From Candidatus Altarchaeum sp. CG2_30_32_3053 (lineage in GTDB: Archaea > Altiarchaeota > Altiarchaeia > Altiarchaeales > Altiarchaeaceae): a DNA stretch of 42,453 nucleotides. Shown here one piece after another: positions 26,001 through 42,453 of this stretch. The translations under genes and the position numbers were made by a program. The stretch spans positions 1-42,453 of the forward strand of contig MNZY01000237.1 in the NCBI GenBank assembly GCA_001873845.1, in the 5' to 3' direction. The notes beneath the pieces were generated by a model. It was not told the DNA's origin. It saw only the letters and a list, made by a program, of their open reading frames with translations, and made no database searches. Position 1 is the stretch's first letter. Every line of letters starts with the position of its first letter.

Positions 26001-26358
26001 CGACAGGTGGAATTACAAAAGCCAGTATATGAATAAGTGGTTTGGCGATTTAAGTGAAATTTTGCCTGGAAAGGGATACTGGATAAAGGTAGATGAAGAT
26101 TGTAATCTGACTATAACAGGAAGCGAAATAGAAAATTTTTCCTTAACTCTTAACAACGGATGGAATTTGATATCATTGCCATCTCTTGACGAAATTAATC
26201 TTGATGATATGGACGGATATACGGATGTTTTCACTTATGATGACAGATGGATTTACAAGAGCAGTTATATGAACAAATGGTTTGGCAACTTAAACACATT
26301 AAATTCAGGAAAGGGATACTGGGTAAAAGTAGAGGAACATAAAATATTTAGTAAATAA
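20002..26358 (+). CDS. Giant (2118 aa) secreted DUF11-repeat surface protein with N-terminal Cys motif and C-terminal twin GWNL/GKGYW module
   Basis: 6.4-kb ORF. The signal-like N-terminus is VAFTFIFISSLALVLFVLNADA|EC. It is followed by CASPACCGVCENYINDSANIS and repeated units such as VKPGESIFYTLNISNEGDAPAYNISIKDVLPKGW. Confidence 0.95.
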   Translation: MNPKVNIRNVAFTFIFISSLALVLFVLNADAECASPACCGVCENYINDSANISVNFPVLIVNKSVNPATFEQGELVEFKIEVLNIGNVSAYELSMKDILNEDLDYVQSKYDNSSSNYLIYKFVFNVTGNGEYSCQKSDGGWFSDSSQCVPKENIDFHYLSDTNELTWGKYGSSGGKELPPKVAYVIKFYARAKENASAGNLTNNVTIKANYDQHQYVCTAPASCQGGSCKGADGGSCPNNGLCYCDNCVSQPSGDCSDTSIKLSDHSDINLPPSITPNLNSSANFTILPKSEIYITKGINSTANKFTVGEIIPFVLNINSNLNETNATLTDVKVTDNLPYGIEFLNATLCNETNNALNSTTQPQLNQNSSDDPQASTILTFNIGNLTKDVSNIKICIYTKVASDASNAYGALKNDARVYASNNQTYETKNLSDAAEKYFYILKPASLKISKKTLTTNVVPNSIATYEITVWNEGDSEAVNITIFDPLPCNFTYINNSCNVTENNTDTNLTCPDENTTEPSFNISKIEGHSRIVFTFNVSVPNNVSGMCGNTIVAEAKDTSGNNLTVNYISQTSYIYTEHGFGYLQVNKEVINNKLFAVGEIVQYKIKVRNSGSVQSVNNVQLKDFLPMGMKFANISIQNCNVSNITGNYSTNGEILICNIGSVVPNETKIYYLNATVMDYKPVMVNKVEVNGSTSNGEQWFKDNIAVYVGKAKLKIEKKANKNNVKPGESIFYTLNISNEGDAPAYNISIKDVLPKGWKPTEGGEWLSYTCELTYTSSRTSFSQTTLYFTGNELAPGASCEIKYRVQAPSNASGGLYQNDAEVSGNDSFGNKLDGDKTYKNVFVYEFRDMRLIKVADKTNIRVGEDVFFTIIVTNTGNVPYSVSLTDELPYGFENNTPISYDFALDRGASKTIHVGATVTNNAIPGLNANCVKASAYMGNKLVLERKDCAFVYVSSPSIDIEKWTITPTLNPGENATFFVRVKNKGTENISNLNLTDSIPGIGMNNADVSISKVSCSANITTGNYPNIAGGRLNRGEECVIRYTFKLPDNASGLYQNIVYATASTGTGTINESDKAYINVLYNPKYEVWKIADVSKVDIGESVNFTIFVSNEGNVPLNLSISDVLPNNFINLTSLTFIYTLNPGKDKNYTVIAKPNSGAVDSENCVVVNATAPKNEVLHKTACTGIHIKKPLLIIQKWTTTPSRLPNEKAEFYVMIKNDGEGIAKNVKVTDESDMTNSSAVISYEGDCDSLTIGTYPSLISNGTLHSNQYCIIHYNMTVPNVDGYTNIATLNATDAGNKQLNIQKSEAYVLASGITPSFSVEKFVSDGNPFAERGTYKNFTVKVKNLGNVYINITDIDETPPYGFNCAAGNIAGTTLQPGETTTTNITCFVNKSALVGVNVNEVRVWAIGNGGVNISQSDNEFVIVQEPKLKIEKKTNKKNAKPGDPITYTLNISNVGDAPAYNISIKDVLPKGWKPTGGEWLSYTCELTYTSSRTSFSQTTLYFTGNELAPGASCKIVYRIPVPPTTSTGIYTNYATVSGADKSTKIFGYNDEITAYIKGSPVLYVSMSANATYVKKGDTVKFTTRIENLGDVQMKDIVVEIILPPGFENLTQTKISGLSLDAGASTEVNVIAKVLNDTNATIGGAHVARVYVNATSFGGTKLKAESYATVYITSTPLSLIGDIDEKTLFMGSHLKNRFIVVNPSMFDTRDINLTVKLPKGLKYDVNSTMFNGVPLSDDESNGIVTEEDGKQTIEWKNLSMYSKSVGILSFSALVEDDVSGKVINASIIYNQHGEISIVDTSITINQEFVSKPFFYVFQDKEKVNVNEIIKYTVIVNDEFGRLNDPFLKLTANGLKILDVELKNNEENRTYNAVINGKIINLTNLTHSIEIDIHSLPFPTTSPKLNLDAVLTYNDGSKIINLQINKITDLLIPPEGIITNVESQNLNLSINLKDVNLNYTLHLKNGWNLIGIPIMPEKTNLEEILKPIEGKYTDVFTYNDRWNYKSQYMNKWFGDLSEILPGKGYWIKVDEDCNLTITGSEIENFSLTLNNGWNLISLPSLDEINLDDMDGYTDVFTYDDRWIYKSSYMNKWFGNLNTLNSGKGYWVKVEEHKIFSK
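22197..22397 (+). repeat. Near-identical ~200-nt intragenic repeat, copy 1 (contains a G8 tract at 22287-22294)
   Basis: Hand alignment to 24348-24545 shows 2 substitutions and one 3-nt indel, while the flanks diverge quickly. Confidence 0.9.
24348..24545 (+). repeat. Near-identical ~200-nt intragenic repeat, copy 2 (contains a G8 tract at 24435-24442)
   Basis: Same as above. The offset between copies is 2151 nt before the indel and 2148 nt after it, both multiples of 3. Confidence 0.9.
25885..26355 (+). other. C-terminal twin module of the 2118-aa protein
   Basis: LHLKNGWNLIGIP...GKYTDVFTYNDRWNYKSQYMNKWFGDLSEILPGKGYWIKVDEDC... then LTLNNGWNLISLP...YTDVFTYDDRWIYKSSYMNKWFGNLNTLNSGKGYWVKVEE. 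The second copy starts at 26143. Confidence 0.85.
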
Positions 26359-35600: not shown

Positions 35601-38168
35601 ACAGTAACCTACAATGCCACTGCAGCAGGTAAAACAAATACGAGTTGTCCATCAATGATCGGAAATGGCAATGTAAGCACTTGTTCAATAACATCTACCG
35701 GGACAGTAATACTTACAAAAACAGCAAATGTGTCTTATGTTCAACCAGGTGAAAGTATAAATTACACTATAACCATCAATAATACAAATGCTGATGTAAA
35801 TATGACAAATATTGTTATTGAAGACATACTGCCACCAGGATTTACTTGTAATAATGTTACAGGATATAGTGGATGTGATTGTGATAATATAACAAATTCA
35901 AATTGTAATCTTGGAAATGGAAATAAGACAATCAACATAATTGCGACTGTTAACAGCAGTGCAAATAACAACACAGCATACAACAATGCAACAATTACCT
36001 ACAATATTACAAGTTTGCCAACAACACAAGAAGGTCAACCTATTACAGTTAGCCAGCACACAACAGTATTCAAACCAGATCTTGGGGTATGGAAAAATAA
36101 CAACATGACGAATATAACGGGAAACAATGTTGCAAATGATGATATGAATGTAACCTATACAATAGTTGTTGTAAATAACGGAGGGGGCGATGCAAAAAAT
36201 GTAACTGTTGAGGATGTGTTACAATCTCCACTTTATCATATAACCGGAGTGGAGAGTGTGGAATGTACAGGCAATACCACATCAGTTACAGTAACTAACA
36301 CATCAGTTGGAACCAATGAAATGAACTTCACATTTAATAGCATAGAAAACGGAACAAAATGTAAGATAACATATAAAGTAAATGTGCCAAGATTTACTAA
36401 TACCTTAACATACACTAATAATGTTACGATAGTGAATGGAACATTTGCAAACGACGAACCTTTGACGGCTGATGAAGGCATAAATAAGACGGACACTTCT
36501 AACTTAATAGTAGCGGGCAAATATGTACATATCTGTCAATTTACCTATTCACAAGGTCCAAATAGTCAAAGTGTTTTTCATATCAAGGCAAAAGTGACAG
36601 AAGACATCTCGGATCAACAAATAACAAATACAGTAAGAGTTAACGGAACCCTAAACAAAGGAACATCTGGGGAAATACCATTATATGCTGAATCCACAAA
36701 GTCGGTCAATTTGGAAAATCCAAATGTAAGCATAGTTAAATGGGCAGATACAGCTGATATAGAGCCGGGACAGGAAGTAACATTCTATGTGCAAATACAG
36801 AATCCATCTGAGACAAATCTGATAAATTTGAGTATTAAAGATATATTGCCAAAGGGTTTTGAATATGTGCATAATAGCAGCAAATTAGAGGGGCAACTGT
36901 TTAATGAATCAAACAGTGCGATATTCAATGTTACTCCAGAAATTTATAATGAATCAAATAACAATACACAGCAAAATATAACCTGGAATGTTAGTAATTT
37001 ATTGCCAAAGACAATTAAACTATTGACTTTCAAAGCAAAGGTAAAATGTAATATTACAGAAGGAGAAAAGAATACAAACAACGTTTGTATTAATGGAACA
37101 ACACACGATGATGAAAGAGTTGGAGCATGCACGAACTACACGATGACAGGACACCTTGCACACCTAACAATAAACAAATATGCTGACAAGGATAAAGTGA
37201 AATGGTTTGATGTTGTTGAATATACTATAGCAATTAAAAATCCAGCGCTTGGTTCCGCTCATTCCATATTGAAAGAAATAAATGATACAATGGCAAAGAA
37301 TTTGAAGTATATCAATAATTCTGCAACAATCAATGGAGAGGTAATTGAACCACAAATTATTGGAAACTACACCGATGGAACAACATTGATATGGAACGGT
37401 TCAAAGATAAATGATACAGCTGTCTGGGTTGGAACAAAGGTTGTTTTGAAATACAGGGTTTTGATAATGCCAGGCTTAAACGGAATCCTTGACAATAATG
37501 TATCATTGGAATACTATGACCCCTTGCCGGGGCACTTTGATCCAGAAGCAGTGTTTAAGGCATCATTTAGAAGTGCCATAGTAAGAGACGGATATGCGCC
37601 AAAACAAAATATTGTTTCAAGCGGAAATGTGAATCTGTTCCTCGGAGATGAGATAAATACACCTGTGACAACTACTACTACAATACACCTGAAACAGGGA
37701 TGGAATTTGATTTCATTACCAATTCAACCGGAGGATACAAATATAGATATGGTTTTGAATAGCATAAAAGGCAAATATACGGATGTGTTCGCTTATGAAG
37801 ACAGATGGGTTTACAAGAGCGAATATATGAATAAGTGGTTTGGCGATTTGAGTAAATTAGAGGCTGGAAAAGGATACTGGATTAAGGTCAACGAAGATTG
37901 CAGTTTAACAATTAACGGAATTATAGCCAAGAGTGCGAATATATCTTTGAAGCAAGGATGGAATTTGGTTGGACCATTGGCAACAACAGGAAAAAGTATT
38001 TCATTGGACAACCTCAATGTGCAATATACAGATATATTCACTTATGAAGACAAATGGGTTTACAAGAGCGAATATATGAACAAGTGGTTTGGCGATTTGA
38101 ATAAATTAGAGGCCGGAAAAGGATACTGGATTAAAGTTGAGAACAATGAGGAGCAGCTTGTTATGTGA
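26610..38168 (+). CDS. Giant (3852 aa) secreted DUF11-repeat surface protein with ~265-aa two-domain super-repeat and C-terminal twin module; alternative start at 26808
   Basis: 11.6-kb ORF. Met67 (ATG 26808) begins a classic signal peptide, MIGYRTSLKLGGIFALIVGLIFIFSAVNVSA|GG. The next segment, CCCYAGSCLNEINDTANVS, aligns with the start of the mature 2118-aa protein. Many units resemble IRPGQDVNYTITVKNTGGGTAYNISIRD and AQPGDSINFTINVTNNGGNTVYNIKVDDILPYGF. Confidence 0.95.
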   Translation: MDRKNLLKGNDFFGNLKNSGILALVVIGVVLMFLMSSLMFLASGLNRILNFNKNNINLLKNFKIYKMIGYRTSLKLGGIFALIVGLIFIFSAVNVSAGGCCCYAGSCLNEINDTANVSAANAYLKVDKFVDKDIVQVGDTVGYTIIVRNLGNTTAYDVTVNDTLPIDISSVTLGDINYIYNINGNGEIPTCQFLSTTNNESGKVLYCKINKIPKKDETGANVTIFFGAKVTQHTNAPINHTNNVSVNGFYTPCSDTNGNILKEDGTCPCTNLTNCNQVYGVSDIATVQTDQDGSNGYNGLRDNATVWIVGIDVTKYATTNSTLQAGDEVVFHITITNTGDLQVCNITVHDRLPSALEFVDSSPENSSPVTGRDVYFNLGCLNGSLSTTINITTKVSTAATTLSSLSNFVEVNGTVYNASGNATDINVTDDYTTPPQYFDNETGTNQTPQIGKATLSLNKIAMDPWTRPNREIKYRVEVDTGGAMVYGAQITDHLPGAFQYMNNIIQLNDGECTPNSTTSSNSTGEVIFNLGNFTGKCIFEYTVYVPWNTKDGYYRNNQTLTANDKNNQTLANVTDNAPVIVDGNTRLTVNKDVVNPRIFQPNDIIEYTLTVSNEGDNEIHDVNVTDLIPYGMNYSSSWLEGGNVYIPGYDEAAIGSPACQITSQTCNTTHCNVTVGCCNNEIYTYNDIPNGTSQTGSASCTNYNVSCNNSNPPSCTISNSSTSTVQIIGDLKYTDPSKGYKAIWHFDIIGAKTTKVIHLNLTITSDSVGGSSMNKVEVTGITPNGDVLLWKDIASSARIGKANLLIEKSSDTATIAAGEEVTYTIRVKNIGEGYAQNITIKDEPGSQMQLGAISMASCNGGSLLSEKYEGGPATNYGDSVTYILKNVSLAPGKECVINYKAYTASTSQEGLYVNKATLNWRDMFGTEQMALSTTAAVMILPPDALMSIRKQSNATRAQPGEKLNYTITIENKGNETLRDVIINDTLPDGFKNLSQAYWGNFNCSNMPNGTCVRDINSDKSNYTGEGIGGFTTVTLSIEAIVTSNTTEGLNTNKVTITAKRPSGTPVKGSSSHILQVNKPHISITKWASTTMREPGQNVTFYIEVKNTGAGDAKNITITDDATPFEHIGNVSVVSGDCTVNKSGDGNITTFWINDNGTFNAYKTCIFKYLMKVPANTPDGTYTNNASLSYQDLNNTEFSKSAGTDVLVTINLFPDVEKIANDTSLQPGDRVNFTINVRNYGSATMTNGTVTDTLPPGFRCLNASGITNGINCSCVNDTTAICNLTDLVGNTISNPLSMWVEAKVNGSATEGSNENNVSLNGTRPDGLPINRTTEAKVFVNEPKPQLEIYKWTDTIKATPNSTVIYYILVKNTGDGDVYNLTINDTMDFGSITNYSTIPNGSADCNTSTKSCNISHLSSAGQCQIKLIALINENATDGTHNNTVNVSGFMKGGTEINKTKLNDTESINVEADVKLTVTKKANTTEVNAGDNVTYTVIVRNDGVNRVMVNVTDNAPLGFTCVNKTPNESVWINGNSLETFTFECNVNSSATQGNNTVVVNGVAENNQTFDANGTTTIVLNTPKLEIIKEAVTGTVEQNGIATYKIIVRNTGTAPVKNISITDRGDGGGGTFTTALGGPSLDTAASTGCTGVNSGGLYLSNSSPHYHEVNFTTNGTMNPGQQCVFTYTLTVNSTAQIGNYTNNATITGAYHPVDNSSYTPTPEPKDNATIRVIPQMNVSFTKTGNATAEPGQSVTFTINITNNNAGANMTDVVFNDTLPDGFNCTSNSTQRIPANTGPNINCSCDGRQINCNIETIENSSTVIINITADVNSSAELSSTNRANVTYNVTNTTLITSEASHTVTILKPQLSVLKENNATGVIRPGQDVNYTITVKNTGGGTAYNISIRDVLDDGLTHTSVSNISCNGLTNSSTGTNAIDFNISSLANNSNCKFNITVHVPEQVNNSVFGNTINITDAQFGDGTHLNSTYGIGENATSDITVQAFTNVSVVKSANPTSAQPGDSINFTINVTNNGGNTVYNIKVDDILPYGFNPNCTTLSPHNYCNCNESTRKINCTFPNSTVLSVISANVTVNSSANPLSTNTANVSYDLPNGTTQQTDNPGQTTVTVNKPNLTIQKTPNNPKASRDQNISFEIRIKNIGTGTAHNILIQDVLPSANMRHISNGTNVSGCSQSIIIANPLNTNTTTFTLDNLTAGQECIFNYTVYIDENISDGNYTNIATITGGKFGDDSYMDSSYGNNSNSNATVEVTTTIIPSIEKIPYNDKMQPGDTINFTIIIKNNGNNDWKNVAVKDVLPAGFIYNNTINVTPSTGGYTNITYNSTTRELNYTGVTVPKFGNWTVIVVANVTSGASSPSTNRVNASSPDNRSVATVATVVVDKPALIVSKEPLLLTYLPGDNATYRIKITNTGTGDAFNVTMEDAFADLKFYHNGNESISIAHCGTNNNTNVSITSGNGTNSAIFALNDTLAGQENCEFTYTVRVDERHEDGLYANNAKVNSTMGDGTKLPVAEDSAQVLIKADVSMRVTKTSNATDQKVNAGDYINFTITVYENGNSPIYDVNVSDTVPYGCVVTNVTNNSNVNGSWDGRNVNFIIGKINNRSHVDLNITCYINHSMTKGWNTNSVRVVAKKPNGDEIYGSASTQIRMLLPDISWTKESLNKTILAGQKVTYKIKVTNKGDGTAHNLTIVDYLPKGDEGNWTYASGTNINDSCGYNWNATNVSNDGNIVKFFLDKMNGSENPAGTECAFTFEVQIPHGTTSVMYANTIGGNWSYGDINNNTPKATNYISNQTPGESNVYVYAGGGIIIQKESDKEVYQYGDIINYTITVYSNGIPTTNLTVTDVIPKGLRLTECPGSAKTEPSASSPTTPFIDFANNSFNYSITNTLIAKLSAVNNNTNIQENDTVLWTANITNDAVSNATMTNVTLVYSFGNDLNVTMNTTSQGTCTRNNDTQVTCNIGDIALGNTVQVNITTNATNNTSVNGTPTVTYNATAAGKTNTSCPSMIGNGNVSTCSITSTGTVILTKTANVSYVQPGESINYTITINNTNADVNMTNIVIEDILPPGFTCNNVTGYSGCDCDNITNSNCNLGNGNKTINIIATVNSSANNNTAYNNATITYNITSLPTTQEGQPITVSQHTTVFKPDLGVWKNNNMTNITGNNVANDDMNVTYTIVVVNNGGGDAKNVTVEDVLQSPLYHITGVESVECTGNTTSVTVTNTSVGTNEMNFTFNSIENGTKCKITYKVNVPRFTNTLTYTNNVTIVNGTFANDEPLTADEGINKTDTSNLIVAGKYVHICQFTYSQGPNSQSVFHIKAKVTEDISDQQITNTVRVNGTLNKGTSGEIPLYAESTKSVNLENPNVSIVKWADTADIEPGQEVTFYVQIQNPSETNLINLSIKDILPKGFEYVHNSSKLEGQLFNESNSAIFNVTPEIYNESNNNTQQNITWNVSNLLPKTIKLLTFKAKVKCNITEGEKNTNNVCINGTTHDDERVGACTNYTMTGHLAHLTINKYADKDKVKWFDVVEYTIAIKNPALGSAHSILKEINDTMAKNLKYINNSATINGEVIEPQIIGNYTDGTTLIWNGSKINDTAVWVGTKVVLKYRVLIMPGLNGILDNNVSLEYYDPLPGHFDPEAVFKASFRSAIVRDGYAPKQNIVSSGNVNLFLGDEINTPVTTTTTIHLKQGWNLISLPIQPEDTNIDMVLNSIKGKYTDVFAYEDRWVYKSEYMNKWFGDLSKLEAGKGYWIKVNEDCSLTINGIIAKSANISLKQGWNLVGPLATTGKSISLDNLNVQYTDIFTYEDKWVYKSEYMNKWFGDLNKLEAGKGYWIKVENNEEQLVM
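37683..38165 (+). other. C-terminal twin module of the 3852-aa protein
   Basis: IHLKQGWNLISLP...GKYTDVFAYEDRWVYKSEYMNKWFGDLSKLEAGKGYWIKVNEDC... then ISLKQGWNLVGP...YTDIFTYEDKWVYKSEYMNKWFGDLNKLEAGKGYWIKVENN. The second copy starts at 37941. Confidence 0.85.
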
Positions 38169-38273: not shown

Positions 38274-39557
38274 ATGAATAAATTTTTTTTATTGGGAGTT
38301 TTAATAGTTTTATCTTTGCTTATGCAAGAGATATCAGCAGAATGTAATGCAACAGTTTGGGGAAAAATTGGCTTTTCTGGATGTAATAACAGTGCGGCAA
38401 TAAATGCAACAATCCAAATAATGAGCGGATTCAAACTATTAAATTCCACACAAACAGACGAAAATGGAATTTATAACACAAGTATTTCTTTTAACGGCAC
38501 ATCAAAAAACATAAGTATAAGAATGATGAAAAAGAACGAAATAAAAACATATTATGACCTCACAATTAATTGTGAGGATAATATTTCTAAAAATCACTCT
38601 ATTATTAAAGAACCAATACAATATTTTAGCGGGAATATTAAAATGATTGACAACGGTGATTTTAAAGATATTAATGAAACAGACAAAGTAGAAGTAGAAG
38701 TACATTTAAAACTTATTTTAGAGGATAGTAAAAATGTTAATGCGTCAGAAAGTATAAATTCTACCATAACAAGCAAGGGCAGTTATACTTATCGACTATC
38801 CCCAAATAGTTTTTATTGTTCTTGGCCAACAAAATTATATTTATGGGCAGAGCCAACAGAAAATTATTATTATAGAATATTTGATTATGAATATTTTGTT
38901 GCTATCAATTCTTCAAATTATACATCATTAGCAATTTGCAGCTATGATCATAATCCAATAACAAAAGATTTTATCAGATTTCCGCGAAAAAGTGTCAATG
39001 ATAACTGCAGTTACATTGATGAATGCAAAAGCAATATTTGTAATCAAATTTCTCACACATGCCAATGTACGAGCAATTCAGATTGTGCAGATAGTCAGAT
39101 TTGCAATGCAACAAAACAATGTCAAAATTTAATTTGTTCACCACCAAATGGAAGTGTTTATAATCATACCTGTGTGAATTGCACAGATAATGCAACTTGT
39201 GGAGAGCAATTTTGTAATTTAACTGTACATGCTTGTCAACCAATATATTGCACAGGAGATGATTTATGTCGCAGTAATCAAATTTGTTGTAATACAACAA
39301 TGATACATCATCAATGCAAAAATTTGCATTGCTTTGACAATCAGAGGGCATTTAATCATACATGTGTTAATTGCAGTTCATTTGATTTTGATAATAATAA
39401 CATAACAGATATTTTTGATGCTGTTTATCTTTTAGAATATATTAGTGGCGAAAAAAAAGACATTTCACCAGACATTTCACCAGGATGCGCAGATGTCGAC
39501 AATAATGGAATCGTTGATTTATTTGATGCAGCATATATTTTATATTATTTATTATAG
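38274..39557 (+). CDS. Secreted modular protein: CarboxypepD_reg-like N-domain, Cys-rich knot repeats, C-terminal dockerin
   Basis: 427-aa ORF. The signal peptide is FFLLGVLIVLSLLMQEISA|EC. TQTDENGIYNTSISF is typical of carboxypeptidase-regulatory-like beta-sandwiches. The Cys-rich repeats include DECKSNICNQISHTCQC, SDCADSQICNATKQCQNLIC and others. The dockerin at the C-terminus is listed separately. Confidence 0.85.
   Translation: MNKFFLLGVLIVLSLLMQEISAECNATVWGKIGFSGCNNSAAINATIQIMSGFKLLNSTQTDENGIYNTSISFNGTSKNISIRMMKKNEIKTYYDLTINCEDNISKNHSIIKEPIQYFSGNIKMIDNGDFKDINETDKVEVEVHLKLILEDSKNVNASESINSTITSKGSYTYRLSPNSFYCSWPTKLYLWAEPTENYYYRIFDYEYFVAINSSNYTSLAICSYDHNPITKDFIRFPRKSVNDNCSYIDECKSNICNQISHTCQCTSNSDCADSQICNATKQCQNLICSPPNGSVYNHTCVNCTDNATCGEQFCNLTVHACQPIYCTGDDLCRSNQICCNTTMIHHQCKNLHCFDNQRAFNHTCVNCSSFDFDNNNITDIFDAVYLLEYISGEKKDISPDISPGCADVDNNGIVDLFDAAYILYYLL
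39381..39554 (+). other. Dockerin-type module (two EF-hand-like Ca-binding loops, each followed by a helix)
   Basis: DFDNNNITDIFDAVYLLEYI and DVDNNGIVDLFDAAYILYYL both place D/D/N/D/D at loop positions 1, 3, 5, 9 and 12, as in the type I dockerin consensus D.N.DG.V...D...L. The two loops are separated by a 17-residue linker at the extreme C-terminus. Confidence 0.75.
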
Positions 39558-39564: not shown

Positions 39565-39636
39565 AATTTTATAAAATATAAATTTAGTAATAATTTTTAA
39601 AATTATTTGTTGTATATTTTAATTAATTATATTAAG

Positions 39637-42453
39637 ATGGATAAAAAAATTTTATTTATAGGTTTAGTAATAATTATTGTGGCACACATATACTCAGTAT
39701 CGGCCGACAATTGTTCTGCGACAGTATCCGGAAATGTAAATTTTTATGGACAAAATAACAGTGTGGCAATAAATGCAACGATACAAATAATTAGCGGATT
39801 CAACATATTAAATTCCACACAAACAGACGAAAATGGATTTTATAACACAAGTATTTCTTTTAGTGGCACATCAAAAAACATAGCCATAAAAATGATAAAA
39901 GAAGGAGCTTATAGTTCAGAGGGAAAAAATTATACTTGGATCATTGATATGAATAATATGGCTTCAATTAATTGCAGTGATAATATTTCTAGAAATTATT
40001 CTATTGAAAAGTGTTTATCAGCAATTCCTTATAAAGGATCTATCAAATACGAAAACTTTGATAATATTTATGAAAAAGATGATGGAGATGAAGTAAAAAT
40101 ACATTTAGCAGCGATTCCAAGAGACAGTGGAGGAATATATATAGAAGATACAAATTTTACAAAGACGGATGAAAATGGTTCTGCTTATGTTCTATCCACA
40201 GATACATACACTTTTTGGCCAATGAATTTATATCTATGGGCAGAGCCAACAAAAAATTATTATTATAGGATATTTGATGAGGATAATTTTGTTGCCATCA
40301 GCTCTCCAAATTATACATCTTTAGCGAGTTGTAGTTCGTCTACTACAGATATAACAAAGAATTTTATAAGATTTTCAAGAAAAAATACAAGCGATAACTG
40401 CAATTATGATGATGAATGCAAAAGTAATATATGTTATAATGGAAATTGTGCATCATCAAAGAAAAATATTAATGAAACATGCGCATCAAATGATGAATGT
40501 TCAAGCAACAATTGCAACAATTACAGCCACAGATGTCTTCCAAATATAACAAATTTCTGCTACAGTGATAATGATTGCTGCAATTCATCTTCATTTAATG
40601 ATGGCTTATGTAATTTAATTCAGTTCTGTAACAGCACAAATTTCTGTCAAAACGCCATGTCAAATTCAAATGTTTCAAATTCAAATATAACTGATGGAGC
40701 AATTGTAAGTAATTCAACAATAAACAAGTCAAATGTTAATAATTCCATAGTAAATCATTCTACATTGATATACTCAATGATAAAGAACTCAACAGTAAAC
40801 AATTCAAGCTTATACGCATCAGTTGTATTAATAAGCAGCATTACAAACAATTCAGCATTATATAACTCCACAGCAAACAATTCAATAATAAGTAACTCAA
40901 CAGTACAAAATTCAAACATAGCTAATTCGTCTGCATTAAATAGCACCATTACAAACAATTCAGCATTTTATAATTCAACAGCAAACAATTCAATAATAAG
41001 TAACTCAACAATTGCTAATGCAACAATAACACATTCTCAACTTACAAATTCAGCATCAGTCAATTCATTAATTAACAATTCCTTTACTAATAATTCAATA
41101 GTAAATAATTCAATAGTAAATAATTCAATAGTAAATAATTCAACAATAACCGAACAATCAGTCCTTTACAATTCAACCATCAACACTTCAAACCTTACTG
41201 ATTCAAATGTTTCAAATTCAAATATAACCGAAAATTCAACACTTTACAATTCAACAATCATAAATTCAAATTTGATTGATAGTAATGCATCAAATTTAAC
41301 TGCAAGCAATTCGCATATGACAAATTCAACAATCGTCAATGCAACAATATTAAATTCTCAACTTACATATTCAACATCAGTCAATTCATCAATTAATAAT
41401 TCCTTTATTAATAATTCAGCAGTAAATAATTCATCAGTAAATAATTCAACAATAACCGAACAATCAATCCTTTACAATTCAACCATCAACACTTCAAACC
41501 TTACTGATTCAAATGTTTCAAATTCAAATATAACAAACGAAGCAAGTGTAAGTAACTCAACAATAAATAATTCAGAATTATATAACTCCACAATAGGAAA
41601 TTCAATAATAAACAACTCAACCGCGTCTGTTTCAAATGTTTCAAATTCAACTATAACCGAAAATTCAACCTTTTACAATTCAACAATTGCTAATTCAGAA
41701 ATATTAAATTCTCAACTTACAAATTCAACATCAGTCAATTCATCAATTAACAATTCCTTTACTAATAATTCAATAGTAAATAATTCATCAATTATTAGTT
41801 CAGAAATATCAAATTCATCACTTCCATCCGGATTAAACATTACCCACGCAATAATAAATAACAACATTATAACAAGCGGAAATGTAATAACCGCCGATGG
41901 AACAAATGTAACAGTAAATGTAAAAACATCTGGAACTTACATAAACGGAACATTTTACAATAATACTTATGCTATAATTTATCAAAATGGTACAGTTGCT
42001 ACTGTTGCGCCGTTGCAAGGAAACAACATAACCGGCTCAACTATTGATAACATTTCAAGCATTGGCAATTCAAATGTTACCTATTCAAATGTGACAAATT
42101 CAACTATAAGCAATTCAAACTTAGATAACTCAACGGTAAATAATTCAATTGTAACAAACGGTTTAGAAGTAAGTAATTCAACTATAAGTGATTCAAATGT
42201 AAACAATTCAACTGTAACCGATTCAAATATTTCAAATTCAAATATTACAGATTCTACATTAGATAATTCAACTACAGGCAATTCAACAATTGCTAATTCA
42301 GAAATATTAAATTCTCAACTTGCAAATTCAGCATTAGTCAATTCATCAATTAACTATTCCTCTATTAATAATTCAATAGTAAATAATTCATCAGTAAATA
42401 ATTCAGCAATAACAGAACAATCAATTCTTTACAATTCAACCATCAGCACTTCA
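39637..42453 (+). CDS. Partial (>=939 aa, 3' end outside the window) secreted paralog of the 38274 gene, with a long N-S-x-[ILV] pentapeptide-like solenoid in place of the dockerin
   Basis: It is not in the ORF track because no stop is reached. I translated it codon by codon from ATG 39637 to 42453 (2817 nt, 939 codons) and found no in-frame stop. The N-terminus MDKKILFIGLVIIIVAHIYSVSA|DNCSATVSGNVNFYGQNNSVAINATIQIISGFNILNSTQTDENGFYNTSISFSGTSKNI aligns closely with the 38274 product. Confidence 0.85.
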   Translation, partial: MDKKILFIGLVIIIVAHIYSVSADNCSATVSGNVNFYGQNNSVAINATIQIISGFNILNSTQTDENGFYNTSISFSGTSKNIAIKMIKEGAYSSEGKNYTWIIDMNNMASINCSDNISRNYSIEKCLSAIPYKGSIKYENFDNIYEKDDGDEVKIHLAAIPRDSGGIYIEDTNFTKTDENGSAYVLSTDTYTFWPMNLYLWAEPTKNYYYRIFDEDNFVAISSPNYTSLASCSSSTTDITKNFIRFSRKNTSDNCNYDDECKSNICYNGNCASSKKNINETCASNDECSSNNCNNYSHRCLPNITNFCYSDNDCCNSSSFNDGLCNLIQFCNSTNFCQNAMSNSNVSNSNITDGAIVSNSTINKSNVNNSIVNHSTLIYSMIKNSTVNNSSLYASVVLISSITNNSALYNSTANNSIISNSTVQNSNIANSSALNSTITNNSAFYNSTANNSIISNSTIANATITHSQLTNSASVNSLINNSFTNNSIVNNSIVNNSIVNNSTITEQSVLYNSTINTSNLTDSNVSNSNITENSTLYNSTIINSNLIDSNASNLTASNSHMTNSTIVNATILNSQLTYSTSVNSSINNSFINNSAVNNSSVNNSTITEQSILYNSTINTSNLTDSNVSNSNITNEASVSNSTINNSELYNSTIGNSIINNSTASVSNVSNSTITENSTFYNSTIANSEILNSQLTNSTSVNSSINNSFTNNSIVNNSSIISSEISNSSLPSGLNITHAIINNNIITSGNVITADGTNVTVNVKTSGTYINGTFYNNTYAIIYQNGTVATVAPLQGNNITGSTIDNISSIGNSNVTYSNVTNSTISNSNLDNSTVNNSIVTNGLEVSNSTISDSNVNNSTVTDSNISNSNITDSTLDNSTTGNSTIANSEILNSQLANSALVNSSINYSSINNSIVNNSSVNNSAITEQSILYNSTISTS
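40660..42453 (+). repeat. Coding 15-nt (pentapeptide) periodic repeat array with ~100-nt higher-order repeats, interrupted at ~41815-42040
   Basis: The AATTCA (Asn-Ser) hexamer recurs about every 15 nt. gtaaataattcaata appears twice in exact tandem from 41101, and a third copy matches in its first 12 nt. Long near-identical blocks lie at 41134-41229 and 41440-41535 (period 306), with a partial copy at 42397-42453. A second block family starts near 41009, 41327, 41686 and 42286. Confidence 0.9.

Follow-up and report, generated by a model that had tools for sequence, protein, structure and literature searches.

The gene o8, which lies at the end of a 42,453-bp stretch of archaeal DNA (contig MNZY01000237.1, positions 1 to 42,453, deposited as Candidatus Altarchaeum sp. 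CG2_30_32_3053; hereafter the window), encodes a surface protein of Candidatus Altiarchaeum hamiconexum, an archaeon found in groundwater. This protein is 1,930 residues long and anchored in the membrane, and it contains two long arrays of the five-residue unit x-N-S-x-[ILV]. Our results support the notion that the array behaves as a folded beta-solenoid and not as a random low-complexity tract. We regard a beta-solenoid fold as highly probable and the four-sided pentapeptide type, for which the evidence is moderate, as reasonably likely. We further think it fairly likely that the array serves as the stalk of a type-I surface glycoprotein, a narrow pentapeptide-type beta-solenoid acting as a rigid spacer for the head domain. 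The array is best described as a divergent, exported, sequon-rich and very long version of an established repeat fold, and its protein family is confined to an archaeal lineage about which little is known. For now, the finding is a well-supported annotation and no surprise.

The G+C content of the window is 32%, and very large proteins are encoded one after another on its + strand. The reading frame through position 40660 is open from position 39601 to the window end, and o8 starts in this frame with the ATG at 39637, so that 939 residues are encoded before the window end cuts the gene. From residue 342 (nt 40660) onwards the protein consists of the period-5 repeat x-N-S-x-[ILV], as the first-pass annotation of this DNA had noted. 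The identity at a lag of five residues amounts to 0.349, as compared to a mean of 0.148 (standard deviation 0.013, maximum 0.187) in 500 shuffles of the same residues. A dynamic-programming parse of residues 342-939 yielded 103 units of five, 12 of six and two of four residues. The succession of about 77 units, an insert of about 70 residues at ~41815-42040 and further repeats, as read in the first pass, held in its order; array 1 comprises 76 units, eight of them with six residues, and the insert is 80 residues long (41824-42063). No period-5 stretch was found in any other gene of the window. In the full-length gene recovered from other assemblies, array 2 comprises 69 units and reaches residue ~1153, which gives ~145 units in the two arrays (75 + 69 where array 1 has one unit fewer). 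Of the 144 units in the full-length arrays, 134 (93%) have Ser at position 3; 81% have Ile, Val or Leu at position 5 and 74% have Asn at position 2. Thr is found at position 4 in only ~35% of the units, and the outward positions are mostly Thr, Asn or Ser. The Ser, Asn and Ile/Val/Leu positions are invariant in homologues of 31-52% identity, where the remaining positions vary.

At the DNA level, Tandem Repeats Finder and a repeat search revealed a 15-nt phasing throughout, with higher-order copies of 78 nt and 306 nt on top. The pair Asn-Ser is encoded by AATTCA in 55 of 73 cases (75%) within the repeat and in 34% in the other genes of the window, a clear enrichment that falls short of the near-exclusive use first reported. 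Likewise, TCA accounts for 72% of the Ser codons in the repeat and for 30% elsewhere. We read this bias as the trace of a recent DNA-level amplification and not of codon selection. The amplification could be taken to mean that the array lacks a stable fold and represents an extended, mucin-like and densely N-glycosylated linker, whose periodicity stems only from the copying of 15-nt units. Asn, Ser and Thr make up ~49% of the first 939 residues of o8, the density of N-glycosylation sequons reaches 15 per 100 residues in the repeat region and large parts of both AlphaFold models described below remain under a predicted local distance difference test (pLDDT) score of 50, all of which would fit such a linker. 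However, the Ile/Val/Leu residue at every fifth position and the Ser two residues before it are kept in the diverged homologues and in units that have diverged at the DNA level. In addition, conserved cap modules follow each array, a pLDDT of at least 90 is attained over 70 residues and Pfam and the Protein Data Bank (PDB) return solenoid proteins. We therefore consider an unfolded linker unlikely.

Pentapeptide-repeat proteins are defined by at least eight contiguous five-residue repeats (PMC8145042), a number exceeded both by array 1, with its 76 units, and by the 25 units of array 2 that lie inside the window. The published consensus comprises a small inward-facing residue at i-2 (A/C/S/V/T/L/I), Leu or Phe at the central position i and a turn residue at i+2 (G/D/E/N/R/Q/K), together with D/N/S/K/E/I/R at i-1 and S/T/R/E/Q/K/V/D at i+1 (PMC8145042). 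The units of o8 fit this consensus in 96-99% of cases at i-2 and in 86-92% at i+2. I, L, V, M or F occupies i in 81-92% of the units; i-1 fits in 43-52% and i+1 in 41-64%. A sequence search of the PDB gave seven matches with an expectation value (E) below 1, all of them pentapeptide-repeat proteins, and HMMER aligned these with Ser at i-2 and Ile/Val/Leu at i, in agreement with the register proposed in the first pass. When a profile of the o8 family was used, structures of pentapeptide-repeat proteins were again the best matches (E 2e-6). The Pfam family Pentapeptide_3 (PF13576) scored 29.7 bits on the window protein and 31.6 bits on the full-length protein at a cut-off of 27, though no single stretch was significant. 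This match and that of Pentapeptide_4 (PF13599) lie at residues 846-909 of the window protein, within array 2.

Structure prediction points in the same direction. In an AlphaFold job with 650 residues, ~350 residues were modelled as strand-turn-strand with one three-residue strand per unit and a pLDDT of 63-88, and residues 404-650 came out unmodelled. Foldseek matched this model to a mixture of Ag43, pectate-lyase-like and pentapeptide helices, which did not decide on the fold type. A second job with 236 residues (residues 575-810 of o8), again with a three-residue strand in every unit, gave a pLDDT of at least 90 for its residues 1-70 (575-644 of o8; peak 95) and of 74-87 for residues 71-100, decaying beyond, with a predicted template modelling score of 0.61. 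With this model, ranks 1-26 of the Foldseek search against the PDB were taken exclusively by pentapeptide-repeat proteins (probability 1.00, E 5e-8 to 3e-5), including the designed protein beta1, QnrB1, AlbG, MfpA, HetL and EfsQnr; neither antifreeze nor hexapeptide helices appeared within the top 50. The same picture emerged from the viral library of Foldseek.

Several results weigh against a four-sided pentapeptide helix. Leu or Phe is present at position i in only 16-21% of the units. PF13599 reached 24.8 bits on the window protein at a cut-off of 38, and PF00805, the family named in the first pass, did not match the whole o8 protein. When the array was divided into eight pieces of ~100 residues, every Pfam match remained below its gathering score, and the sub-threshold matches were a mixture of Pentapeptide_3/4, CfAFP, LbH and LD_SV2. 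A comparison of the family alignment with one canonical pentapeptide protein by hhalign gave a probability of 2.8%, and the family profile that retrieved pentapeptide structures also retrieved spruce-budworm antifreeze proteins at E 2e-5 to 6e-5. As concerns the models, the template modelling (TM) scores to pentapeptide-repeat structures are low (0.2-0.38, with root-mean-square deviations of 9-11 Å), about half of each model has a pLDDT below 50 and the underlying alignments are only six to seven sequences deep, so the network may simply have completed a pattern. Finally, we found no face-specific periodicity at lags of three, four or five units, and its absence at a lag of four speaks against four units per turn. 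Pentapeptide-repeat proteins are the best-matching class by Pfam, PDB sequence and Foldseek, and the four-sided geometry that the first-pass annotation proposed is not established by these data. In array 1 the six-residue units stand at unit indices 3, 12, 19, 31, 36, 51, 56 and 64, all of which are 0 or 3 modulo 4. This spacing would agree, if weakly, with a coil of four units that bulges at one of its corners; we do not use it as support, because duplicated blocks make the counts non-independent.

The antifreeze matches raise the question of whether the array forms another beta-solenoid, chiefly a three-sided helix like that of the antifreeze proteins CfAFP (PF05264; PDB 1EWW, 1L0S and 1M8N) with 15 residues per turn, the flat Thr/Asn/Ser face of which would bind ice, mineral or polysaccharide. 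CfAFP shares with the array its five-residue sides and its Thr/Ser-rich outward ladders, and the outward positions of o8 are dominated by the corresponding residues. These three structures are the ones retrieved by the family profile, with values close to the best pentapeptide match, so that four units per turn are not proven. In addition, Pfam CfAFP gave weak matches on seven of the eight array pieces (E 0.005 to 1), the TM-scores to pentapeptide structures are low and three-sided helices (Ag43, pectate-lyase-like) are mixed among the pentapeptide matches of the first AlphaFold model. On the other hand, all CfAFP matches lie below the cut-off (best 17.2 versus 25.9 bits), and the Foldseek top 50 of either model holds neither CfAFP nor another antifreeze helix, while the confident model has pentapeptide proteins at ranks 1-26. 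The array also lacks the regular T-x-T ladder that forms the ice face, as well as any periodicity at a lag of three units. Unlike o8, CfAFP is left-handed, disulfide-braced and only ~90-120 residues long. A helix of this kind is accordingly an unlikely, though not a negligible, alternative. The left-handed hexapeptide helix, which the first pass had named as a fold that would contradict its assignment, does not fit the data: the identity at a lag of six residues is 0.111, below the lag-5 shuffle mean of 0.148, six-residue units account for 12 of 117, and the matches of the LbH families (PF00132 and relatives) have E-values of 0.0025 or more, below the cut-offs.

Natural solenoids typically carry capping modules. 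The 80-residue module between the two arrays contains the motif N-[AV]-x-I-x-N-N-x4-G ... S-G-[TL]-Y-I-N-G-x-[FY]-Y, which is repeated after the last array of full-length o8 and in the homologues P0001-P0005. AlphaFold predicts beta-hairpins for the module at low confidence. In our interpretation, it closes array 1 as a C-terminal cap and connects it to array 2.

A look-up of the adjacent paralogue o7 in public assemblies yielded six further contigs carrying the locus. In two of these, o8 is read through, giving 1,930 residues (L001:11364-17156) and 1,883 residues (L006). The N-terminus displays a basic n-region, a hydrophobic core and a V-S-A cleavage motif, as judged by inspection. By our reading of the sequence, the signal peptide is followed by the head, the Cys-rich modules, array 1, the cap and array 2; then come a second cap with the same motif, four Ig/FN3-like domains, a Ser/Gly/Thr linker, Cys repeats of the CGDGxC type and a small beta domain. 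The protein ends in a hydrophobic membrane helix and a Lys/Glu-rich tail, again by inspection. Given these predicted signals at both termini of the full-length product, o8 appears to be exported, as the first pass had assumed. The organism is identified by P0004, a protein from an NCBI genome bin labelled Candidatus Altiarchaeum hamiconexum, which is 99% identical to o8 over the downstream 978 residues. The head is restricted to few proteins, with six homologues among 5.8 billion proteins, one of which is named 'Dockerin domain-containing protein' in UniRef. A sequence search of the PDB with the head and the Cys-rich region gave no match, and AlphaFold left the Cys-rich modules (residues 253-341) unmodelled, with a pLDDT of ~30.

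The length gap between the two complete versions of o8 corresponds to one 47-residue Cys-rich repeat (IICGDGICDKNETYINCPQDCKKPLICGDKICEGNETCENCQIDCGKC; residues 1697-1744 of the L001 protein), present in two copies in one assembly and in one copy in another. A second repeat of o8 is thus likewise variable in copy number. At the 3' end (L001:17080-17230 and L006:13020-13200) the called open reading frame terminates with ...KEEKENNRKRLKKRKKAD, and an alternative frame encodes EQQETIKKAEEGGLIGLSIRKETKEHPKEECLGGLIGLQ, the tail of P0004. This latter tail resembles those of P0003 and P0005, with a conserved cytoplasmic motif consisting of two copies of GGL[IV]GL. This suggests that the frame has shifted in a purine run, be it through a polymorphism or an error.

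The additional contigs also bear on the integrity of the array. The window and six independent assemblies share it with differences of only one five-residue unit (NNSIV three times in the window, twice in the others) and two substitutions. Five of the seven sequences, the window among them, break off within array 2, between residues 939 and 982 of o8. As blocks of 88-90% identity recur within the arrays, and one such copy (89%) occupies the final 174 nt of the window, the window end was probably caused by the repeat. These contig ends, and the fact that all assemblies are short-read and k-mer based, so that near-identical blocks could have been collapsed to too few copies, are what could be said for an array that arose from mis-joined or collapsed reads. 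Given that the arrays are nearly identical over seven assemblies, two contigs span the whole gene, the downstream 978 residues are present in the NCBI bin and diverged orthologues share the organisation of o8, the array is not an assembly artefact, the chance of which we put close to nil.

We next turn to the sequons. The 598 residues from position 342 to the window end contain 91 of them, as compared to 49±5 in shuffles that preserve the composition. Shuffles within the columns of the repeat gave 53.3±2.6 for array 1, which has 63, and 39.1±2.7 for array 2, which has 50; the significance of this excess is inflated by the duplication of blocks. A sequon Asn is carried by 75% of the units of array 1 and by 68% of those of array 2, so that 'almost every rung', the wording of the first-pass annotation, somewhat overstates the case. 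In array 1 the sequon Asn is located at i+2 (31 cases), i+1 (24) and i-1 (10), positions that would all face outside in a pentapeptide helix. Since Asn belongs to the turn residues of the consensus at i+2, its conservation alone does not imply glycosylation, and the N-S core may be read purely structurally, with Asn in the turn and the small Ser after it pointing inward. The coils of a beta-helix rise by 4.8 Å each, a spacing at which only a subset of the sequons could bear oligosaccharides.

The long window proteins that bear a signal peptide (3158-42453, o4-o8) contain many Cys residues and 3.9-7 sequons per 100 residues, with 11.6 in whole o8, which suggests heavy N-glycosylation and the use of disulfides on envelope proteins. 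The hamus protein of the organism runs at 120 kDa instead of the predicted 97 kDa, a gap attributed to glycosylation by the authors (PMC4460559). Glycosylation of some sequons of the array is therefore plausible; the claim of a regular glycan lattice goes beyond the evidence.

Taken together, these results are compatible with the following model. The x-N-S-x-[ILV] units would fold into a narrow pentapeptide-type beta-solenoid, in which Ile, Val or Leu at i and Ser at i-2 fill the core, Asn at i+2 occupies the tight turn at each corner and the two variable positions, mostly Thr, Asn or Ser, cover the exterior. Pentapeptide helices contain four units per coil (PMC8145042). If four units likewise corresponded to one 4.8 Å coil of o8, its ~76 and ~69 units would build rods of ~9 nm and ~8 nm, each ending in the conserved beta-rich cap. 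From the membrane outward, the order would be the membrane helix, the Cys-rich repeats, the four Ig/FN3-like domains, the two rods, the Cys-rich modules and the head. The stalk would thereby act as a rigid, polar spacer, resistant to proteases, and keep the head at a fixed distance from the membrane; a subset of the 91 sequons in the window would probably be N-glycosylated. Gains and losses of 15-nt units or of ~300-nt blocks could easily make the rods longer or shorter.

The orthologues have arrays of about 30, 47, 58, 71 and 143 units, with the flanking domains kept. Moreover, o7 bears the same head, and a dockerin-like tail takes the place of stalk and anchor, which argues for the stalk role. 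The absence of the array from o7 shows that it was inserted between two modules, one forming the head and the other the anchor. The single-unit indel between populations and the duplicated blocks of 88-90% identity likewise favour a stalk. The conserved flanks, the array-less o7 and the variable unit counts of the orthologues thus fit a spacer of freely variable length.

One feature of the organism complicates this model. The cells are double-membraned with an intermembrane space of ~32 nm (PMC4460559), so that the ectodomain that we call extracellular may be periplasmic. With two capped rods of ~17 nm in total, the Ig/FN3-like domains and the Cys-rich parts, the ectodomain would measure ~35-45 nm, near the width of this space. 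It is conceivable, although we deem it very unlikely, that o8 acts as a periplasm-spanning strut or ruler that reaches the outer membrane or sets its distance, with a dense and regular row of N-glycans along its rods. No solved pentapeptide helix displays such a row, and on this view the rod length would be expected to co-vary with the envelope geometry across Altiarchaeota and DPANN.

The same fold could also serve another purpose, namely that of a self-associating 'Velcro' adhesin, akin to Ag43, AIDA-I or TibA, that zips together the rods of neighbouring cells in the Altiarchaeum biofilm. The organism indeed lives in dense biofilms (PMC4460559), Ag43 and the glycosylated TibA are among the Foldseek matches and the exterior of the rod would show uniform ladders of hydrogen-bonding side chains. 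However, dense glycosylation would hinder contacts between rods, the outer membrane may enclose o8, and the conserved head, together with the array-less o7, suggests that the binding function resides in the head. We therefore ascribe only a small chance to this function and favour the spacer. We also considered o8 as the subunit of the hamus grappling hooks and rejected this identity. The hamus protein has ~97 kDa, is Gly/Thr-rich and carries an S_layer_N-like N-terminus (PMC4460559), whereas o8 has 1,930 residues, is Asn/Ser-rich and has no S-layer family among its Pfam matches.

The stalk model offers a structural reading for a sequence type that is usually dismissed as low complexity and that recurs in giant surface proteins of Altiarchaeota and DPANN, the cell-surface biology of which is almost entirely unknown. 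If fold and glycosylation were confirmed, the o8 array would exceed in length every known natural helix of the pentapeptide type and would represent a prokaryotic equivalent of the glycosylated luminal helix of SV2. It would, moreover, be a simple case of a surface stalk with a length that is adjusted through the gain and loss of 15-nt units. The features of o8 and of its neighbours in the window are compiled in Table 1.

Table 1. Features of o8 and of the neighbouring surface-protein genes, in window coordinates.
Feature	Position	Strand	Basis
Signal peptide (MDKKILFIGLVIIIVAHIYSVSA, residues 1-23) and o8 start	39637..39705	+	Open reading frame translation; by inspection
N-terminal head domain (residues 24-252), lineage-specific	39706..40392	+	46% identity to o7
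Cys-rich modules (residues 253-341, 14 Cys), head-array junction	40393..40659	+	Cys positions; kept in homologues P0001-P0005
Pentapeptide array 1: 76 units, eight of six residues (residues 342-729)	40660..41823	+	Parse
80-residue non-repeat module (residues 730-809)	41824..42063	+	Parse; motif recurs in full-length protein and homologues
Pentapeptide array 2, first 25 units (residues 810-939), cut by window end	42064..42453	+	Parse
Paralogue o7: same head and Cys-rich modules, two dockerin-like terminal loops	38274..39557	+	Sequence comparison
Dockerin-like loops of the o7 C-terminus (DFDNNNITDIFDAVYLLEYISGEK, DVDNNGIVDLFDAAYILYYLL)	39381-39551	+	Pfam Dockerin_1, sub-threshold
C-terminal duplicated modules of o4, o5 and o6	~19583-19912, ~26026-26355, ~37836-38165		

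The array is part of a surface-protein gene cluster, and the head paralogue with its dockerin-like tail hints at modular assembly on the Altiarchaeum envelope. The heads of o7 and o8 are 46% identical (E 8e-77), and o7 is devoid of the repeat array. Pfam Dockerin_1 matched the terminal loops of o7 with an E-value of 0.0033 and 18 bits, under the cut-off of 22.9, and Pfam revealed no cohesin partners for this tail in o4-o6. The latter genes encode giant proteins with DUF11/CLIPPER domains (5,585, 2,118 and 3,852 residues), the C-termini of which share a duplicated module of ~50 residues with the motif GWNL[IV]G...YTD[IV]FTY.D[KR]W[IV]YKS.YMNKWFG[DN]L..L..GKGYW[IV]KV. They lack a C-terminal membrane helix, and it is through this shared module that they could be attached or sorted. 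In the same cluster, o3 (2017-2922; 301 residues) starts with a signal peptide and a small N-terminal domain and ends in a C-terminal membrane helix; in between lie long Asn/Gln/Ser-rich repeats of the NQQNNQTNVSNQS type with 21 sequons. It looks like a second type of glyco-stalk, one that is probably disordered.

An exhaustive search with the repeat region retrieved 348 cluster representatives at E <= 1e-3, of which the top 150 were sorted into classes. At least 28 of these 150 (class a) are pentapeptide arrays rich in N, S, T and D; they belong to large proteins with many Cys residues and sequons, and many of these have a signal peptide or a C-terminal anchor. Class b consists of Ala/Lys-rich decapeptide proteins that are phage-tail-fibre-like by sequence pattern only; classes c and d comprise canonical A-N-L-S-G proteins and eukaryotic low-complexity repeats, respectively. 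The eukaryotic proteins P0021 (NSYIG repeats) and P0029 (an MFS protein with LNSDV repeats) were set aside as low-complexity matches due to chance. Of ten class-a proteins that were looked up, five carry an organism name, and all five belong to Nanoarchaeota or Woesearchaeota. Among the class-a proteins and orthologues, 18 of 30 match Pentapeptide_4 (PF13599), beside PKD, Big, NosD/Beta_helix and LamG modules; P0018, for instance, is 41% identical over ~470 residues and scores 70.7 bits on PF13599. Exported arrays of the pentapeptide type thus recur, uncharacterised, in surface proteins of Altiarchaeota and DPANN. In the literature searched, we found nothing relevant on pentapeptide repeats in surface proteins of archaea or DPANN. 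In light of these relatives, the view of the first pass that a secreted or glycosylated protein of this kind is unusual is overstated, all the more so as lumenal pentapeptide domains have already been described in the thylakoid proteins Rfr32 and At2g44920, and an N-glycosylated one in SV2 (PMC8145042).

Among the closest counterparts of o8 are the arrays of P0018, P0019, P0020, P0022, P0031, P0073 and P0002 from Nanoarchaeota, Woesearchaeota and Altarchaeaceae. They share the xNSxI or xDSxV units, the high sequon density, the Cys-rich modules, the signal peptide or C-terminal anchor and similar cap motifs; they differ in being combined with PKD, Big, NosD/Beta_helix and LamG modules. In the databases they are labelled hypothetical or automatically 'YjbI with pentapeptide repeats', and we found no experimental study of them in the literature. 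The 'AKIxDAAITN' decapeptide repeats (PF25296 Decapeptide), likewise found among the relatives, resemble the array as extracellular fibres made of period-5/10 units with a central Ile. In contrast to o8, they are Ala/Lys/Asp-rich and sequon-poor and lack the N-S core, and 'phage-like' describes them from their sequence pattern alone.

The adhesins AIDA-I, TibA and Ag43, the latter two of which turn up among the Foldseek matches of the array models, also form long beta-helical rods on the surface, with many sugars along the repeat in AIDA-I and TibA. Unlike o8, they are bacterial, have three-sided coils of 19 residues, are O-heptosylated on Ser and are anchored by an outer-membrane beta-barrel.

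As to the pentapeptide-repeat proteins proper (PF00805, PF13599 and PF13576; MfpA, QnrB1, AlbG, HetL, Np275/276 and Rfr23/32), they share with o8 the tandem five-residue units with a small residue at i-2 (Ser in o8), a hydrophobic one at i and a turn-friendly one at i+2 (Asn). The o8 array departs from them in its Ile/Val centre instead of Leu/Phe, the unconserved D/N at i-1, the ~9% of six-residue units, the marginal scores with hidden Markov models and its own beta-rich cap module. Moreover, its ~145 units in two rods compare with roughly 20-40 units in the characterised proteins, and o8 is exported and membrane-anchored instead of cytoplasmic. The array is not acidic and hence not a DNA mimic.

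The clearest precedent for a glycosylated and topologically extracellular pentapeptide helix is the luminal domain of SV2A/B/C (PDB 4JRA and 5JLV; PF23894). This domain forms a pentapeptide-type beta-helix, the N-glycans of which matter for the binding of botulinum toxin A (PMC8145042). Pfam LD_SV2 reached at best 13.3 bits on the array pieces at a cut-off of 29, and full-length o8 contains no transporter domain. In SV2, a eukaryotic protein, the helix comprises only 4.5-5 coils with a few glycans inside a transporter loop, in contrast to the two long, sequon-rich arrays of o8 in a membrane-anchored archaeal protein.

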